From Dehalococcoidia bacterium (GTDB taxonomy: Bacteria > Chloroflexota > Dehalococcoidia > GIF9 > AB-539-J10): 64,000 bases of DNA. The translations under genes were made by a program, and so were the position numbers. This document shows positions 1 through 54,845 of the stretch, in pieces. The notes under the pieces were generated by a model. The model was given only the letters and a program-made list of their open reading frames with translations, was not told where the DNA came from and made no database searches. The stretch is taken from assembly GCA_003562475.1 (NCBI GenBank), contig PWUU01000074.1, positions 4,175 through 68,174 on the forward strand. The letters are read 5' to 3'. The stretch's first letter is position 1; each line of letters starts with the position of its first letter.

Positions 1-1172
1 GCGAGGCGGAGAATATACTGCCACGCCTGCTTGAGGACATGGAAAACGGACACGCTGCGCACGTCTACTCTTCACCAGAGTTGCCGGACATTGAATCGAG
101 TCCTATTCCCATGTGGTCGCTCGTACACAATCATCGCTATCACATGATGTGTCTACAGTACTCGCGTGGCTGTCCCTACAATTGCGAATTCTGCGACATC
201 GTCATCATGAACGGCCGTGTGCCGCGCACGAAGACGCGCGAGCAGGTACTGGCCGAGCTGGATGCGCTCTACCATCACGGGTGGCGAGGAGGCATCTTCT
301 TTACGGATGACAACTTCATCGGTAACAAGCAAAAGCTGAAGGCTGACGTTCTTCCGGCCATTTGCGCATGGAGCAAGTCCAGAGGATATCCATTCTGGTT
401 CCTGACCGAAGCATCGATCAACCTGGCAGACGATGATGACTTGATGCAGTCGATGGTCGAGGCGGGTTTCGACACGGTCTTCGTCGGAATCGAGAGTCCA
501 AATGAGCAAAGTCTGATCGAGTGTAACAAGATGCCCAATAAGGGTCGCGACCTTCTCGCGTCAGTCAAACGGATCCAGCATCACGGGCTCCAGGTACAAG
601 GTGGGTTCATTGTTGGGTTCGATGGCGACCCTCCCTCAATTTTCCGGAACCAGATCAACTTCATCCAGGACAGCGGCATCGTGACTGCAATGGTCGGAGT
701 GCTCATGGCTCCTCCCGGAACATCGCTTTACAAGCGACTGCAGGCCGAGAACCGTCTGTTGCAGGGAGGGACAGGCAACAACACAGACGGATCCACAAAC
801 TTCGTGCCGAAGATGGGATTGGAGGCACTGGCCAATGGTTACAGGCACGTAGTGACTACAATCTACACACCACAACACTACTACGACCGTATTCTCACGT
901 TTCTCAGGGAATACCAGCCACACGGCCCGCGTAGAGGCAATTTCAGCCCCCGCTACATACGTGCATTGCTGCGATGCATGTGGACGATCGGAATCAGGGA
1001 GAGAGGCAGAAGACACTACTGGAAGCTGTTCGGATGGACCTTGCTCAGGAAACCGCGGTGTTTTCCGCTCTTCACAACGTTTGCAGTGCAGGGCTATCAT
1101 TGCCGCAAAGTCGCAGAGGGCACGACCCGCGGAACACAGCTCCAGCCGAATGAGAGAAGACACTTCGCGTAG
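1..1172 (+). CDS. B12-binding radical SAM protein with DUF4070-type C-terminus (5' end lies outside the window)
   Basis: CxxxCxxC motif (RGCPYNCEFC), FFTDDNFIG and VFVGIES motifs. The frame is open from position 3 (EAENILPRLLED...), so the gene starts upstream. Confidence 0.9.
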   Translation, partial: EAENILPRLLEDMENGHAAHVYSSPELPDIESSPIPMWSLVHNHRYHMMCLQYSRGCPYNCEFCDIVIMNGRVPRTKTREQVLAELDALYHHGWRGGIFFTDDNFIGNKQKLKADVLPAICAWSKSRGYPFWFLTEASINLADDDDLMQSMVEAGFDTVFVGIESPNEQSLIECNKMPNKGRDLLASVKRIQHHGLQVQGGFIVGFDGDPPSIFRNQINFIQDSGIVTAMVGVLMAPPGTSLYKRLQAENRLLQGGTGNNTDGSTNFVPKMGLEALANGYRHVVTTIYTPQHYYDRILTFLREYQPHGPRRGNFSPRYIRALLRCMWTIGIRERGRRHYWKLFGWTLLRKPRCFPLFTTFAVQGYHCRKVAEGTTRGTQLQPNERRHFA

Positions 1173-14239: not shown

Positions 14240-15583
14240 TTACAGCCTCAGCAGCATATGCGCCACGGCGAAATACACTCCAACGCCCGATATATCCATA
14301 ACCGTGGTGACCAGGGGGGCCGACACGAGCGCGGGATCGACCTTAGATAGACGAAACAGGAAAGGGAGCACACTTCCAACGGCAGTCGCCAGTACAGCCA
14401 CCGAGACGAGTGTCAAGGCGACAACCATTGACACCCGCGAGTCGCGTCCGAGCCAGAACGCCCAGAGCAGCACAGCAAGGCCCAAAGCCATTCCCAGCAG
14501 CAACCCCACACTCACCTCTCTTCCAATAATCGATACCGCTCGACGCGGACGTATCTCCCCTGTCGCCAGTCCCCTTATAACCACCGTTGCAGACTGAGCG
14601 CCAATGTTACCGCCAGTGCCAATGAGCAAGGGAATGAACGCAGCAAGCAGCACCACCTCGGCGAGCAGCGCCTCCTGTCCTGCGATGATGGACGCCGTGG
14701 CAGTGTTCACGACCAGCAGCAACAAGAGCCAGGATATCCGCCGACGTACCACGCTGAAGACACGCGTCGTGAAATAGCCTCGCTCCGTGCCCTGTACCGC
14801 ACCAAAGCGGTAGATGTCCTCGGTTACCTCCTCTTCCATGATGTCGGCGACGTCGTCCTGCGTGATGATGCCAACCAGTCGGTCTTCCCGATCAACGACG
14901 GGCACAGCGAGAAGCTCATTGTCACGTAACACTCTCGCCGCCTCCTCACGATCGCTGTGCGTGAACACTCTCTTGGGATTTGGGCTCACGATATCCCCAA
15001 CCTTGCTGTCGGGGCTCGCCAGTACCAGTTCCCTCAGTGAGACCGTGCCTTGAAGGTGCCGTTGCGGGTCGATCACATAACACACATAGATGGTCTCGCG
15101 GTCCATCGAGAGGCGATGTATCCGCTCCATTGCCTGTTCAACAGTCATGTTGCTTCGGAGGTCAACGAAGTACGGCGTCATCTCGCGCCCCGCAGTACCC
15201 TCCTCGTAACCAAGAAGCTGTAGCGTGACCTGACGCTGCTCGGCAGAGAGCAGGCCCAGCAGTCTGCGCGTGACGGATGCGGGTACCTCCTCAAGTAGTT
15301 CAGCCCGGTCGTCCGGCGACATCGCCTCGAGCAGTTGGCCTACAGCATGGTGGGTTAGAGACTCGAGCAGGCGGTGTTGCGTCGGTCCATCGAAGTCATC
15401 GAAGACCTCTACCGCGACATCCTTCGGCAACAGGCGGAACGCGAGTGCCATCTCTTCTTCAGGCACCGACTCGAGCAATATGGAAATGTCCACTGGATCC
15501 ATCGCCATCAAATGCTCGCGAAGGATCTTGAGGTTACGGGACTCAATCAATTCCTCGAACGCCTTCTCGTCAAGTGTCTCCAT
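14240..15583 (-). CDS. mgtE: Magnesium transporter MgtE (copy 1, 447 aa)
   Basis: MgtE_N domain, tandem CBS (TAGREMT, LVGIITQDD), GGNIGAQSAT, PLVTTVMD; RBS AGGAG before ATG 15583. Confidence 0.95.
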   Translation of the reverse strand: METLDEKAFEELIESRNLKILREHLMAMDPVDISILLESVPEEEMALAFRLLPKDVAVEVFDDFDGPTQHRLLESLTHHAVGQLLEAMSPDDRAELLEEVPASVTRRLLGLLSAEQRQVTLQLLGYEEGTAGREMTPYFVDLRSNMTVEQAMERIHRLSMDRETIYVCYVIDPQRHLQGTVSLRELVLASPDSKVGDIVSPNPKRVFTHSDREEAARVLRDNELLAVPVVDREDRLVGIITQDDVADIMEEEVTEDIYRFGAVQGTERGYFTTRVFSVVRRRISWLLLLLVVNTATASIIAGQEALLAEVVLLAAFIPLLIGTGGNIGAQSATVVIRGLATGEIRPRRAVSIIGREVSVGLLLGMALGLAVLLWAFWLGRDSRVSMVVALTLVSVAVLATAVGSVLPFLFRLSKVDPALVSAPLVTTVMDISGVGVYFAVAHMLLRL

Positions 15584-15610
15584 GCAGTTACTCCTGATGC
15601 GCCGTCTGTG

Positions 15611-15918
15611 AGAAGAGGAATGGCCACCCTGTACAAGGAGAGGGCGGCGACCAGTGCGTTGTGCCTCACAGAAAGAACCGGGGCACCCCGTCGCTTGCCG
15701 GGCACTCCTGACCTGCATCCATGAAACAGCGTGTGCGCGGTACCCTCGCGTACGCTGTCGCTCTCACGAGTCTGCGCAAATCGGCATCTGAGCGGTCGCC
15801 TGTATCGATTTCTACAGCCATGCGGTCAAGTCACCGACGCTGCGACACTGTTTCTCAATCGCCGCAATCATCTGGCAATTGCTGCTGGCATTCTATGCCT
15901 GACGTTTCTCCGGGTCAA
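15611..15918 (-). promoter_or_regulatory. Promoter and about 300-nt structured leader of mgtE copy 1 with terminator-like hairpin
   Basis: TTGACC-N17-TAGAAT (15918-15890); hairpin GCCGCCCT/AGGGTGGC (15648-15623) followed by a pyrimidine tract. Confidence 0.6.
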
Positions 15919-16088
15919 CGTATTCCGCCTCAGAAACTATCCAGGCCGGACGAGAAACCCCTCACATCCAGGCCTGCATCAGCCACCACGCGTCCGCGTC
16001 GCAGAGCCCTGTACCGTCCTTGCCTCCAGCAGGCAGCCCGCACCCGGGCGCTTCGCCGACGTCGACAACCACAGCAGGATGCGAGCTT

Positions 16089-17432
16089 CTAGGTGAACAG
16101 GATGAGATGGGCCACCGCGAAGTACAGCGCGACTCCCGCTATGTCCATCATCGTCGTAATCAACGGCGCGGACACAAGCGCAGGGTCAACCTTCGAAAGT
16201 CGAAACACGAAGGGCAACGCACTACCGACAGCAGTAGCCAGTGTCGCCACAGAGAGAAGTGTCATGGCGACCACCAGTGAGACCTGGAGATCGCGACCCA
16301 GCCAGTAGGCCCAGACGAGTACGGCCACCCCAAGCAACAGTCCCAACAACAAACCTACGCTCACCTCTCGACCAATAATCCACAGCGCCCGGCGAGGTCT
16401 TATCTCCCCCGTTGCCAGTCCTCTGATGACGACAGTTGCCGACTGAGCACCAATGTTCCCACCGGTGTCAATGAGCAACGGAATAAACGCAGCCAGCAGC
16501 ACCACTTCTGCGAGAAGTGCCTCCTGGGCGGCAATAACCGATGCAGTCACCGTGTTGACAACCAGCAGGAGCAAGAGCCACGAAATGCGACGACGTGCTA
16601 CGCTGATGATGCGCGTGGTGAAATAGCTGCGTTCCGTGCCCTGCACCGCACCAAAGCGATAGATATCCTCGGTGACCTCTTCCTCCACAATATCTGCCAC
16701 ATCGTCCTGGGTGATAATTCCGACAAGCCGCTCCTCACGATCGACCACTGGGACCGCCAGCAGTCTGTTCTCTCGCAGTATTCTGGCTGCTTCCTCACGA
16801 TCGGTGTGGGTGAACACTCTCTTGGGGTTCGGCCTCGCAATGTCTCCGACTTTGCTGTCCCGGTTCGCAAGTACGAGCTCCCGGAGAGACACTGTTCCCT
16901 TCAGGTGGCGCTGTGGATCAATCACATAACACTCGTAGATGGTCTCACGGTCCACCGAGAGTCGGCGTATCCGCTCCATCGCCTGTTCAACAGTCATGTT
17001 GCTGCGCAGGTCAACGAAGTACGGCGTCATCTCGCGCCCCGCAGTGCCCTCCTCGTAGCCAAGGAGGTGCAGCGTGACCTGACGCTGCTCGGCAGACAGC
17101 AGCCCTAACAACCTGCGGGCCACAGAGGCAGGAACTTCCTCGAGCAATTCCGTCCGGTCGTCTGGAGACATCGCTTCGAGAAGCTGGCTCGCGGCACGAT
17201 TCGCCATCGACTCCAAGAGGCGATGTTGTGTGGAACCATCGAAGTCATCGAAAACCTCCACGGCAAGGTCCTTCGGTAACAGGCGAAAGGCGAGCGCCAT
17301 CTGCTCCTCGGAGGTCGACTCAAGAAGCATCGCGATGTCGAGAGGCTCCATGGCAGTCAACTGCTTACGGAGCGTCTTCAGGTTGCGGGACTCAATCAGT
17401 TCCCCAAAAGTCCTTTCATCCAGCTTCTGCAT
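16089..17432 (-). CDS. mgtE: Magnesium transporter MgtE (copy 2, 447 aa)
   Basis: Same motifs and identical length (1344 bp) as copy 1; highly similar protein. Confidence 0.95.
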   Translation of the reverse strand: MQKLDERTFGELIESRNLKTLRKQLTAMEPLDIAMLLESTSEEQMALAFRLLPKDLAVEVFDDFDGSTQHRLLESMANRAASQLLEAMSPDDRTELLEEVPASVARRLLGLLSAEQRQVTLHLLGYEEGTAGREMTPYFVDLRSNMTVEQAMERIRRLSVDRETIYECYVIDPQRHLKGTVSLRELVLANRDSKVGDIARPNPKRVFTHTDREEAARILRENRLLAVPVVDREERLVGIITQDDVADIVEEEVTEDIYRFGAVQGTERSYFTTRIISVARRRISWLLLLLVVNTVTASVIAAQEALLAEVVLLAAFIPLLIDTGGNIGAQSATVVIRGLATGEIRPRRALWIIGREVSVGLLLGLLLGVAVLVWAYWLGRDLQVSLVVAMTLLSVATLATAVGSALPFVFRLSKVDPALVSAPLITTMMDIAGVALYFAVAHLILFT

Positions 17433-17484
17433 GACACTCACCCCCAGGTGCGGCCACGCCGACCCGCGATGCACCCGCAGAACC

Positions 17485-17606
17485 GAAAAAGAAGATCGCC
17501 ACCCTCGCTGGCTGAGAGTGGCGATTGAGGCGCTATCCTCTGTTGGCACTCTATGGTGCCCTGTCGCGCACAAACGGCAGCATCACGGCGACACCGCTTG
17601 TGTCAA
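17485..17606 (-). promoter_or_regulatory. Leader of mgtE copy 2 with intrinsic terminator (attenuator)
   Basis: TTGACA at 17606-17601 (weak -10); 12-bp hairpin ATCGCCACTCTC/GAGGGTGGCGAT followed by CTTCTTTTTC, about 50 nt before the start codon. Confidence 0.65.
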
Positions 17607-18012
17607 TGCGCCCCATTACGACGCTCCCTATCGCCAGGCTGCTCCTCAGCCAGCTTACGGTACAACGGTTTCCTGGATCGCTATCGGCATCCATATGCTC
17701 GAGTTGCCCTCTTGTGGCCTGCTACGCATCAGTGAAACGAGGCCCCCGATAGAACTATCGCGCATTCTACGCCACGGTATTGAGCAACGTCAAAGCAACT
17801 CGTCATTATGTTCTACATGCCTCTCACATGGTCGGGAGAGGCCCATCCCAATCGAAAGGAGGTGATGAGTCACCAGTGAACGAGCTCAATCCATTGACGA
17901 GAGACAGTCGGGTGCCTAAACTGAGCAGGCCGACTCCACGCAGCCCACCGACTAGAGCTGGTCCATGTGGAGACGCACCATGAGTTGGATGACCCGGAAA
18001 GGAGGACTGCCT

Positions 18013-18798
18013 TTGGACACACAACGGTTCCACAATAAGGTCATCATCGTCACCGGAGGAGGATCGGGACTGGGCGAAGACTACTGTCACGGTTTCGCCT
18101 CCGAGGGCGGAATCGTCGTGTGCGTCGACATCGACGAAGCAGCAGCCATACGCACCGCAACTGCACTCAGGGAGACCGGCAACAGATCCATCGCGGTCCC
18201 ATGCGACGTTACCAGGACACACGAGGTAGAGCAAATGGTCGAGGAAGCGCTCCACACCTACGGGCGCATAGACGTTCTCGTTAACAACGCAGGTGTGATC
18301 AGCCGCCGAAGCCTCGTTGGCACAACCGATGAAGACTGGAACAGGGAGATAGATACCGACCTTAAGGGTCCATTCCTGTGCGCAAGAGCAGTCGTGCCTC
18401 ACATGATGGAGCGGGGGTACGGCAAGATAGTTAACATCTCGTCTGTTGCGGGCATCGTTGGCTGCATCTCCACCGCATACGCAGCCTCGAAGGCCGGAGT
18501 TAACGGTCTGACTCGACAATGGGCGCTGGAACTGGCTCCGTACGGGATACGGGTGAACAGCGTTGCCCCGGGTTATACCGCAACCCCCATCAACGAGAAG
18601 CTACGGCTGACTCCTGCCGCCAAACGTATCGGCGAAACCATACCTCTGGGATGGGGCAAACCGGCGGACATAACAGCCGCAGTGCTTTTTCTCAGCGCCA
18701 ACGAGTCGGACTACATCACCGGACAAACGCTGGCAGTCGATGGCGGACTGACTACCACAGTGGACATGGGACCGGAGTATCGCACTTTCGACACATAG
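18013..18798 (+). CDS. SDR family oxidoreductase (FabG-like)
   Basis: TGGGSGLG, NNAG, YAASK, VNSVAPG, ITGQTLAVDGG; RBS AAGGAGG before TTG. Confidence 0.93.
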   Translation: MDTQRFHNKVIIVTGGGSGLGEDYCHGFASEGGIVVCVDIDEAAAIRTATALRETGNRSIAVPCDVTRTHEVEQMVEEALHTYGRIDVLVNNAGVISRRSLVGTTDEDWNREIDTDLKGPFLCARAVVPHMMERGYGKIVNISSVAGIVGCISTAYAASKAGVNGLTRQWALELAPYGIRVNSVAPGYTATPINEKLRLTPAAKRIGETIPLGWGKPADITAAVLFLSANESDYITGQTLAVDGGLTTTVDMGPEYRTFDT

Positions 18799-53719: not shown

Positions 53720-53849
53720 CACCACAGATGTGTTCGTCAGTCCGTGGACAGGCGTGCAACTGCCGATGTTCGGTAGTGCCTGCAAGAGCCTGGATCGACA
53801 GAACTGAACACAGGACATTCCGCAACCCGAGCGCAAAGGAGGACGCCAC

Positions 53850-54845
53850 ATGGAGCCCATCAACGTTCTGGTGAACGATGAGATAACCGAGGATGCGCTG
53901 CCTCGCATCGAGGCCATCGATCCGCGTATTAATGCACTCCACATTGGCAAACTGCTTACCGCCGAAACAGAAGGCGACGGTGAAGCCAAGGAACTCCTCG
54001 ACCGGCTCCTGAGCACAGCCGAGGTCTATGCCGGAATACGGATCCCCGCGCAACTCTTCAGTCGAGCACCCAACCTGAAGTGGATTCAGGTCACCCGCGC
54101 AGGAGTGGACAGGGTGCTCATGGACGCTGAGTTTCGCAAGAGCTCCATTACTCTGACCAATGTGGCCGGAGTCCATAGCTATGGACCGGCTGAGCTTGTC
54201 ATACAAGCGTGCCTTGTGCACGTAAAAGGAACCCTTGAATGCGCCAAACAGAAAGCGGCAAAGCGCTGGGAACCTTTTCAGACCGGCACCCTGAGGGGCA
54301 AGACTATGGGCATAGTCGGGTATGGCAACATCGGCCAAAGGGTGGCACGTGTCGCACAAGCGTTCGAGATGCGGGTCATTACCACCCGCAGGTCAACAAA
54401 GGCGCCTGGAAAAGCACGGTTTGCAGATCTGCTGCTTCCCATCGAACAGCTCAACCGACTCCTGTCTGAGAGCGATTTCGTGGTACTGACAACGCCACTC
54501 ACTCCAGATACGTACCATTTGATCGGGCCTGACCAGTTCTCTGTCATGAAGAGGGATGCGTTGCTCGTGAATGTCTCGCGGGGCCCAACGATCGACGAGG
54601 CTGCGCTTGCGCTCGCGCTTAGAAGCAAGCAAATAGCGGCAGCAGCGCTCGACGTATTCGAGACGGAGCCATTACCCCAGAACAGTCCCCTGTGGGACCT
54701 GCCAAATCTCATCTACAGTCCTCATATCGCGGGCAACGTACCGGCATACCCCCTGATGGTACAGGACCTGTTCGTACACAATCTGGAGCAGTATGTGAAG
54801 GGCGGCCGCCTCGATGGTATCGTCAACAAGAAGCGCGGATACTGA
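53850..54845 (+). CDS. D-2-hydroxyacid dehydrogenase (copy 2)
   Basis: RAGVD, GIVGYGNIG, NVSRG, DVFETEPL, SPHIAG; same C-terminus VNK.RGY as copy 1. Confidence 0.93.
   Translation: MEPINVLVNDEITEDALPRIEAIDPRINALHIGKLLTAETEGDGEAKELLDRLLSTAEVYAGIRIPAQLFSRAPNLKWIQVTRAGVDRVLMDAEFRKSSITLTNVAGVHSYGPAELVIQACLVHVKGTLECAKQKAAKRWEPFQTGTLRGKTMGIVGYGNIGQRVARVAQAFEMRVITTRRSTKAPGKARFADLLLPIEQLNRLLSESDFVVLTTPLTPDTYHLIGPDQFSVMKRDALLVNVSRGPTIDEAALALALRSKQIAAAALDVFETEPLPQNSPLWDLPNLIYSPHIAGNVPAYPLMVQDLFVHNLEQYVKGGRLDGIVNKKRGY

Follow-up and report, generated by a model that had tools for sequence, protein, structure and literature searches.

The present analysis concerned a stretch of 64,000 nucleotides from a Dehalococcoidia bacterium (GenBank assembly GCA_003562475.1, contig PWUU01000074.1, positions 4,175 to 68,174 of the forward strand), hereafter the window, in which two mgtE genes lie in tandem on the minus strand and encode MgtE channel proteins that are 84% identical. 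It indicated that each mgtE copy is probably preceded by a leader-peptide, i.e., ribosome-mediated, attenuator with Mg2+-dependent translation, a reading to which we give a probability of roughly 60%. The leaders are arranged in the order promoter-like site, upstream open reading frame (uORF), stop codon in the loop of a 5-bp hairpin, intrinsic terminator and mgtE, and the uORF (47-51 codons in the window) carries the N-terminal motif M-D-x-D-S-D-x-G-D-R within its first ten codons. The architecture taken alone, a uORF and a terminator ahead of mgtE, is very likely to be real. The parts of the two leaders and the two genes are located in the window as follows.

17764 to 17793, minus strand: promoter-like site of leader 2, TTGACG, 18 nt, TAGAAT, from a consensus scan; predicted start about 62 nt before uORF2
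17551 to 17694, minus strand: uORF2, 47 codons and TAG, MDADSDPGNRC...VRDRAP*; acidic motif in codons 2-10 (17691-17665)
17629 to 17655, minus strand: predicted antiterminator strand of leader 2 (uORF2 nucleotides 40-66), complementary to terminator 2 over its whole 5' arm and loop
17567-17563, minus strand: GCGAC of copy 2, string checked in the sequence
17545 to 17560, minus strand: stop-codon hairpin of leader 2, GGCAC (17560-17556) with GUGCC (17549-17545), the loop holding the TAG of uORF2 (17553-17551)
17527 to 17540, minus strand: small spacer hairpin of leader 2, GAGG-AUAGCG-CCUC, between stop hairpin and terminator, in the minimum free energy (MFE) and centroid folds
17485 to 17525, minus strand: intrinsic terminator 2, 12-bp stem, 7-nt loop, tail CUUCUUUUUC; stem-loop 17525-17495; called by the terminator scan
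16089 to 17432, minus strand: mgtE2, 447 amino acids (aa), with MgtE_N, CBS and MgtE domains
15890 to 15918, minus strand: promoter-like site of leader 1, TTGACC, 17 nt, TAGAAT, from a consensus scan; about 62 nt before uORF1
15666 to 15821, minus strand: uORF1, 51 codons and TGA, MAVEIDTGDRS...DGVPRFFL*, a diverged copy
15694-15690, minus strand: GCGAC of copy 1, string checked in the sequence
15661 to 15686, minus strand: stop-codon hairpin of leader 1, GUGCC (15686-15682) with GGCAC (15665-15661), the 16-nt loop holding the TGA of uORF1 (15668-15666)
15610 to 15652, minus strand: terminator-like hairpin 1, GGUCGCCGCCCU with AGGGUGGCCAUU; 5' arm 15652-15641, loop 15640-15631, 3' arm 15630-15619
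14240 to 15583, minus strand: mgtE1, 447 aa, with MgtE_N, CBS and MgtE domains

A preliminary description of this DNA, made from the letters alone, had proposed a shared terminator-based attenuator before both mgtE copies, kept after their duplication, and this proposal held. The strings that it quoted were all found on the minus strand where it had placed them, and the arms of the 5-bp hairpin are indeed seen to be swapped between copies 1 and 2. A covariance model built from 11 relatives, the window copies being left out, matched copy 2 at 17484-17583 of the minus strand (58.5 bits, E 5.9e-12) and copy 1 at 15609-15710 of the same strand (39.7 bits, E 1.4e-7), the next matches in the 64 kb having E-values of 0.016 (opposite strand of the same terminator) and 0.052. 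This last match was given by model R2 at 53803-53880 (minus strand, 15.9 bits). Direct alignment of the two intergenic regions gave a best local score of 32, vs 27.3 +/- 3.5 (maximum 43) over 200 shuffles, and the best alignment fell outside the shared element; that the element is more than chance thus follows from the relatives' leaders and the model, not from direct comparison of the two copies. In the 13 leaders of the window's own group (group A), the stop hairpin and terminator helices pair in 85.9% of cells, vs 43-47% with partners slid, and five base pairs of these two hairpins are changed on both sides. The MgtE type of the window also occurs in 7 other genomes of the genus, in tandem in 3 of them, and there too the hairpin and terminator precede the gene. 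Model R1 run on 41 related genomes matched mgtE leaders, with the exception of one weak match (E 0.008). This exception lies at about 1500-1600 of the minus strand of L193 (G000:C22), where the hairpin of an unrelated terminator, GGCCAUCCCG...CGGGAUGGCC, with a U-rich tail, is spanned by a 20-codon ORF and followed after about 60 nt by a longer ORF (over 480 aa) whose N-terminus is hydrophobic.

Other elements of the preliminary description have to be revised. It had taken the element for a compact and self-contained metal-sensing RNA; the 5-bp hairpin is in fact the stop codon region of a conserved uORF. It had found the remainder of the two intergenic regions dissimilar; in both, a uORF sharing the N-terminal motif begins 62-63 nt after a promoter-like site. 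Its proposal that GCGA(C) competes with the terminator for (G)UCGC is possible but unsupported: 73.8% of cells over the 13 leaders are paired, but covariation does not exceed that of shuffles, 258 of 500 of which reach the observed percentage. The GCGAC string itself occurs in 5 of the 13 leaders, and the pairing-compatible variants GCGAU and GUGAC in 2 more.

The architecture is conserved well beyond the window. Among 12 same-genus upstream regions, 10 show an acidic or Pro/Asp N-terminal uORF, then a terminator, then mgtE, and these uORFs, typically of 47-48 codons, start with M-[DE]-x-D-[ST]-D-x-G-D-R, have an unconserved middle and end in [AVG]-P-stop. When the comparison was extended to 53 regions upstream of Dehalococcoidia-type mgtE (MgtE proteins at least 58% identical to MgtE1), an acidic or Pro/Asp uORF followed by a terminator-like hairpin was found in 49. 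These include two sister groups, B and C (MgtE 58-64% identical), recovered from public genomes and metagenomes, with sigma-70-like promoters and shorter uORFs (25-31 codons). The group B peptide reads M-[KE]-T-K-S-D-[KR]-E-P-D-K-R...VAL(E)-stop and that of group C M-E-T-K-S-S-P-D-P-D-H-K-R-R-Q-I-A-I-F-V-R-W-W-W-G-L-[LP]-stop; in one group C leader (L110:1007-1099), an in-frame 12-nt expansion doubles the Pro-Asp repeat to SPDPDPDPD. The distance from the stop codon to the 5' arm of the terminator is 21-30 nt in 48 of the 49 regions, the exception being copy 1 of the window, and this fixed spacing spans three groups with otherwise unalignable RNA. Indeed, model R2 found only 1 of 31 group B or C leaders (E 0.039), leaving groups A and B/C unlinked at the RNA level. 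The four regions that lack a motif-bearing uORF with a terminator are G004_E2, G010, L130 and L138. In G004_E2, an mgtE2-type copy (L017, G004:C53), the leader has decayed: a motif-coding remnant, ..CGATTCAG.., is visible by eye, the frame is interrupted, and a weak palindrome and a T run are left. A further 105 mgtE loci, mostly from Clostridia, cyanobacteria and Thermodesulfobacteriota with few Dehalococcoidia, gave no new case of the layout, the loci flagged among them being five group A contigs already counted. By eye, relatives of leader 2 also have TACAAT or TAGAAT at the matching place and small hairpins analogous to its spacer hairpin. The promoter consensus scan itself returned 3 sites vs 1.3 expected.

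The uORF, its acidic N-terminus and the constant spacing between stop codon and terminator suggest that the signal is sensed by way of translation. For these leaders, we infer that the uORF is translated, which way the switch works and that Mg2+ is its signal, along the following lines. Transcription would start about 62 nt before the uORF, whose stop codon would lie about 25 nt before the intrinsic terminator. In the default fold, the uORF RNA would pair with the 5' arm and loop of the terminator and act as an antiterminator, which would allow mgtE to be transcribed. A ribosome translating the uORF to its end would unwind or cover the antiterminator RNA, to about 10 nt past the stop codon; with this RNA covered as the polymerase makes the terminator, only the terminator would fold, and mgtE would be off. 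The acidic N-terminus (Pro/Asp in the sister groups) would make completion of the uORF Mg2+-dependent, as in Escherichia coli MgtL. At low Mg2+, the ribosome would be destabilized or stalled in the first codons, leaving the leader ribosome-free and mgtE on. The MgtL study (bioRxiv 10.1101/2021.02.02.429294) describes how EPDP after the initiator Met destabilizes the translating ribosome, how translation aborts within MEPDPT, more so at low Mg2+, with upregulation of MgtA, and how the destabilization is offset once a long nascent chain occupies the exit tunnel, which restricts the motif to the N-terminus. A wider proposal, on which we remain tentative and slightly below even odds, is that of a Dehalococcoidia family of MgtE leader peptides in which the ribosome would serve as the Mg2+ sensor and would be wired to an intrinsic terminator through a uORF spanning the whole antiterminator domain.

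Evidence for the antiterminator differs between leaders. The antiterminator is well supported by folding predictions for copy 2, where the duplex (RNAduplex, -30.2 kcal/mol) was equalled by 0 of 200 shuffles and where the pairing, with ungapped helices of 11 bp and 7 bp, is recovered by both MFE and centroid folding once the transcript is truncated ahead of the 3' arm. Across group A, in a cognate test in which additive composition effects cancel, pairing of the uORF with the upper stem and loop of its own terminator had a mean of -14.9 kcal/mol, vs -12.2 kcal/mol with those of the other leaders, a mean reached in 4 of 5000 permutations. In group C, a GUGGGGC string near the uORF end (10-16 nt before it, in the W-G codons) faces GCCCCAC of the terminator 5' arm, and 98.9% of cells are paired; the columns are invariant, which makes covariation uninformative. 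In group C transcripts cut in silico before the 3' arm of the terminator, folding paired its 5' arm mainly with GUGGGGC in 24 of 29 leaders, whether the RNA was ribosome-free or codons 6-10 were covered by a ribosome footprint; when the footprint was placed at the stop codon, the count fell to 0 of 29. A pairing between the 5' arms of the stop hairpin and of the terminator in group A, of about 4 bp by eye, was also considered and dropped.

With regard to the signal, the gene controlled is the MgtE channel in all cases. Using a density criterion of at least four D/E/P residues in six, taken from bioRxiv 10.1101/2021.02.02.429294, 7 of 7 uORFs qualified in group B, 24 of 29 in group C and 2 of 13 in group A; ORFs of the window, serving as a null, did so in 1 of 40 cases when long and in 7 of 310 when short.

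Several observations weigh against Mg2+-dependent attenuation as we propose it. The group A count just given includes copy 2, with four such residues, and leaves out copy 1, with three, and the D-S-D-S-G-D motif of this group is devoid of proline; this low D/E/P density is the main weakness for the window itself. Region L138 keeps the layout of promoter, uORF and terminator (960-1165: TTGACA-18-TATAAT, a 27-codon uORF, MRVNHTWFQSKNKKISVFPGNRRANSV, 28 nt, terminator) without an acidic or Pro motif. The position of the group A antiterminator is not conserved, being at the uORF start in G003, L102, L103 and L131 and at nucleotides 29-66 elsewhere, and single-sequence duplex z-scores were unremarkable in 10 of the 13 leaders. 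A consensus helix proposed by RNAalifold on the truncated alignment, joining GGCGACCG (codons 8-10) to CGGUCGCC, has 84% of its cells paired, a value reached by 63 of 500 shuffles, and its covariation is not significant. Equilibrium folding with ribosome masks favors the terminator in most leaders, whatever the mask, and the switch must therefore be kinetic. Some group A antiterminator strands overlap the motif codons; there, a stalled ribosome would favor termination, and read-through would need loss of the ribosome. In group B, the antiterminator is predicted downstream of the stop codon. Finally, the antiterminator of copy 1 is unsupported (cognate rank 10-11 of 13, fold z-score 0.21, poor U tract).

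Copy 1 indeed looks like a weakened, degraded-looking version of the leader. The N-terminus of uORF1 is less acidic, its best 6-residue window holding three D/E/P residues, as compared with four in uORF2. uORF1 runs on for 4 codons past ..GVP, having lost the stop usual there, and its stop codon lies 13 nt from the terminator, vs 21-30 nt in the other regions. The U tract is interrupted by C (pyrimidine tail 15618-15610, CAUUCCUCUUCUC), and the terminator scan called only the hairpin of copy 2. The single-sequence fold z-score of the short element is -0.27 in copy 1 and -2.95 in copy 2.

The same architecture could serve a leader-peptide attenuator with a signal other than Mg2+, candidates being general translation capacity, the supply of Asp-, Ser- or Pro-tRNA, the activity of elongation factor P (EF-P), or stalling at the Pro-stop ending of group A peptides. 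Such an explanation, which we consider unlikely though the best placed among the alternatives, is in line with the Pro-stop ending of 11 of 13 group A peptides, with the ribosome-destabilizing density reached by only 2 of the 13 group A uORFs and with the motif-free layout of L138. It accounts less well for the constant identity of the controlled gene as that of an MgtE channel, for the EPD or PDPD motifs of groups B and C, close to the EPDP of MgtL, and for the peptides themselves, which, unlike those of classical amino-acid attenuators, show no tandem codons for any one amino acid.

Several comparisons bear on whether the uORF is a genuine reading frame. In the 13 group A sequences, stops number 0 in this frame, vs 25 and 24 in the two alternative frames; part of this result is built in, the uORFs having been defined as ORFs. 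The start motif and the stop hairpin can nevertheless be aligned independently of the frame, and the frame between them is open in all group A cases, at a nucleotide identity of 36% over codons 12-40. Length changes are in frame (+12 nt in L110, -60 nt in G009_E2). Variation within the N-terminal motif at codon positions 1/2/3 amounts to 0.14/0.10/0.23 in group A, 0.08/0.07/0.17 in group B and 0.04/0.09/0.13 in group C, and Ser is encoded in the motif by AGC in group A, vs UCN in the two sister groups. This third-position excess and these differing Ser codons appear as signs of selection on the N-terminal peptide, and on such comparative grounds the frame is evidently kept open by selection.

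These findings bear on the possibility that an RNA-only riboswitch, for Mg2+ or another ligand, chooses between antiterminator and terminator, the open frame being incidental or secondary. The conservation of hairpins and terminator with some compensatory changes, and the long-range complementarity to the terminator, would suit such a device, and whether the enterobacterial mgtA leader senses Mg2+ through RNA or through mgtL translation is described as still debated in PMC11552253. We nevertheless regard it as improbable: apart from the terminator, strong sequence conservation is confined to the start of the ORF, which varies in a codon-like pattern, the frame stays open over about 90 nt of otherwise unconserved sequence, the distance from stop to terminator is fixed across groups with differing RNA sequences, and no conserved multi-helix ligand pocket is evident. 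Known RNA families do not favor it either. None of 4227 Rfam covariance models, the enterobacterial mgtA Mg sensor among them, matched the window at its gathering score, and none matched positions 15500-18050, which include both leaders, at E<=10. The M-box (RF00380), which the preliminary description had not seen here, is indeed unmatched in the leaders, the window and the whole genome (95% complete), while the same search finds it in Bacillus subtilis and Lactococcus lactis controls. The Rfam run covered the window and 30 related or control loci and gave nothing relevant; on ten related loci of groups A, B and C, it returned only an unrelated pan motif (RF01749), situated in L110 upstream of the mgtE leader region (520-600, minus strand; 36.3 bits vs a gathering score of 36.2 bits).

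Two further explanations appear less probable still. The uORF could encode a small protein acting in trans, for example on MgtE, with the hairpin and U tract as its own terminator or as a constitutive damper, and group C peptides are indeed conserved over their whole length (METKSSPDPDHKRRQIAIFVRWWWGLL). In group A, however, conservation is confined to about 10 N-terminal and 2-5 C-terminal residues, and the last 12 codons of group C uORFs show no excess of third-position variation. Moreover, in L126 and L127 (L126:1018-1104), a 1-nt insertion throws the group C uORF out of frame past codon 15 and places its stop 5 nt further on, changing the C-terminal half of the peptide and leaving the G-rich string GGUGGUGGGGC and the terminator unchanged. 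Taken together, the unpatterned last codons of group C and the preserved G-rich RNA of L126 and L127 suggest that the 3' half of the uORF is constrained as RNA. The uORF peptides matched no Pfam family, and a collection of 5.8 billion proteins returned 3 matches to them, all unnamed, one being uORF2 of the window. As for protein-dependent antitermination or termination, in which a regulator would bind the stop-codon hairpin and make the uORF irrelevant, the covariation of this hairpin and its frequent CAUAG loop could be cited, but we hold it to be very improbable, as the three groups differ in loop and arm sequences, the neighboring genes (for a short-chain dehydrogenase/reductase and an FMN reductase) include no candidate regulator, and the open frame would be left unexplained.

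Mg2+-dependent attenuation by a leader peptide, which we thus prefer, can be compared with known systems. The mgtL/mgtA leader of E. coli and Salmonella likewise places a short ORF in the leader of a Mg2+ transporter gene, with a D/E/P-rich motif directly after the initiator Met that groups B and C resemble (S-D-K-E-P-D and S-P-D-P-D, respectively, beside the EPDP of E. coli MgtL). There, the ribosome acts as the Mg2+ sensor and leader translation is inversely tied to transporter expression via alternative folds; for both mgtL and corL, this inverse relationship is reported to act through Rho (PMC11552253). The leaders described here carry instead an intrinsic terminator, made of a GC-rich hairpin and a U tract, whose spacing from the stop codon is constant. 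They also differ in the length of the uORF (47-51 codons in the window, 25-31 in groups B and C, longer than mgtL) and in their gene and host, mgtL controlling the MgtA ATPase and the present leaders an MgtE channel in Chloroflexota (metagenome-assembled genomes of Dehalococcoidia). The motif of the window's group, made of Asp, Ser and Gly without proline, is unlike that of MgtL, and no sequence relationship to mgtL was seen, the comparison being with the EPDP and MEPDPT strings only. In corL/corA of E. coli and Salmonella, translation of a uORF also represses a Mg2+ channel gene and responds to intracellular Mg2+; as described in the same source, corL differs by Rho-dependent termination, few acidic or proline residues, and an unrelated sequence and host (PMC11552253).

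Attenuation by intrinsic termination has its own precedents. In the trp and his attenuators, a leader ORF is combined with an intrinsic terminator, and the position of the ribosome selects the hairpin. The M-box (ykoK, RF00380) is the usual regulator of mgtE in Firmicutes and acts through an intrinsic terminator, gene expression being off at high Mg2+. It thus shares with the present leaders an mgtE leader with such a terminator, but needs no translation. A leader ORF and an intrinsic terminator are also described for the tandem attenuators of Salmonella mgtCBR (PMC3641672). With attenuators of the trp, his and mgtCBR type, the present leaders share a leader ORF ending near an intrinsic terminator; unlike classical attenuators, they have no run of codons for a regulated amino acid, and no clear 1:2 pause or anti-antiterminator hairpin was found in them, the antiterminator of group C being already the predicted partner without a ribosome. 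An orphan riboswitch candidate, the 'mgtE motif', has been reported upstream of mgtE-annotated genes exclusively in Thioalkalivibrio (PMC11109978). Going by its description in the text, which has a multi-stem structure holding the Shine-Dalgarno sequence and AUG of the main ORF and mentions no uORF or terminator, it is distinct from the leaders presented here.

Other mgtE loci gave separate observations. The genus has a third, distant mgtE paralogue (29-32% identity; L021, i.e., G000:C72, and L008-L012 and L018-L020), upstream of which no obvious uORF-terminator leader was seen by eye, nor any Rfam match in L021 or L008. In mgtE loci of the Acutalibacteraceae/Clostridia type (L051, L054, L055, L058-L060, L062, L066, L067, L073), a strong conserved terminator-like hairpin, CCCTTTCTGC...GCAGAAAGGG followed by TATTTTTT, lies immediately before mgtE, at -32..+1 from the predicted start. 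It had no Rfam match in the two loci of this type that were scanned (L051, L053), and it may be another uncharacterized mgtE leader. Downstream of a Clostridia-type mgtE, skipping-rope RNA (RF02924, 59 bits) was found at L071:4450-4521 (plus strand).

In the literature searched, D/E/P leader-peptide sensing of Mg2+ is described for enterobacterial mgtA and possibly corA, mgtE being otherwise tied to the M-box; we found no report of an mgtE leader peptide, nor of a leader-peptide switch before mgtE in Dehalococcoidia. The uORFs are unannotated, and a tool seeking riboswitches would take such leaders for orphan RNA motifs. The 25-31-codon leaders with SPDPD motifs and sigma-70-like promoters offer simple test cases. 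If the proposed mechanism is true, Mg2+ sensing by ribosome destabilization would have arisen, or been kept, far outside Enterobacteria and for a different class of transporter, and would count as a strategy of bacteria in general, not as a peculiarity of enterobacteria. Another family that follows this peptide logic without being related, in a distant phylum and with an intrinsic terminator, would speak for ribosome stability as a widely used readout of cytoplasmic Mg2+.

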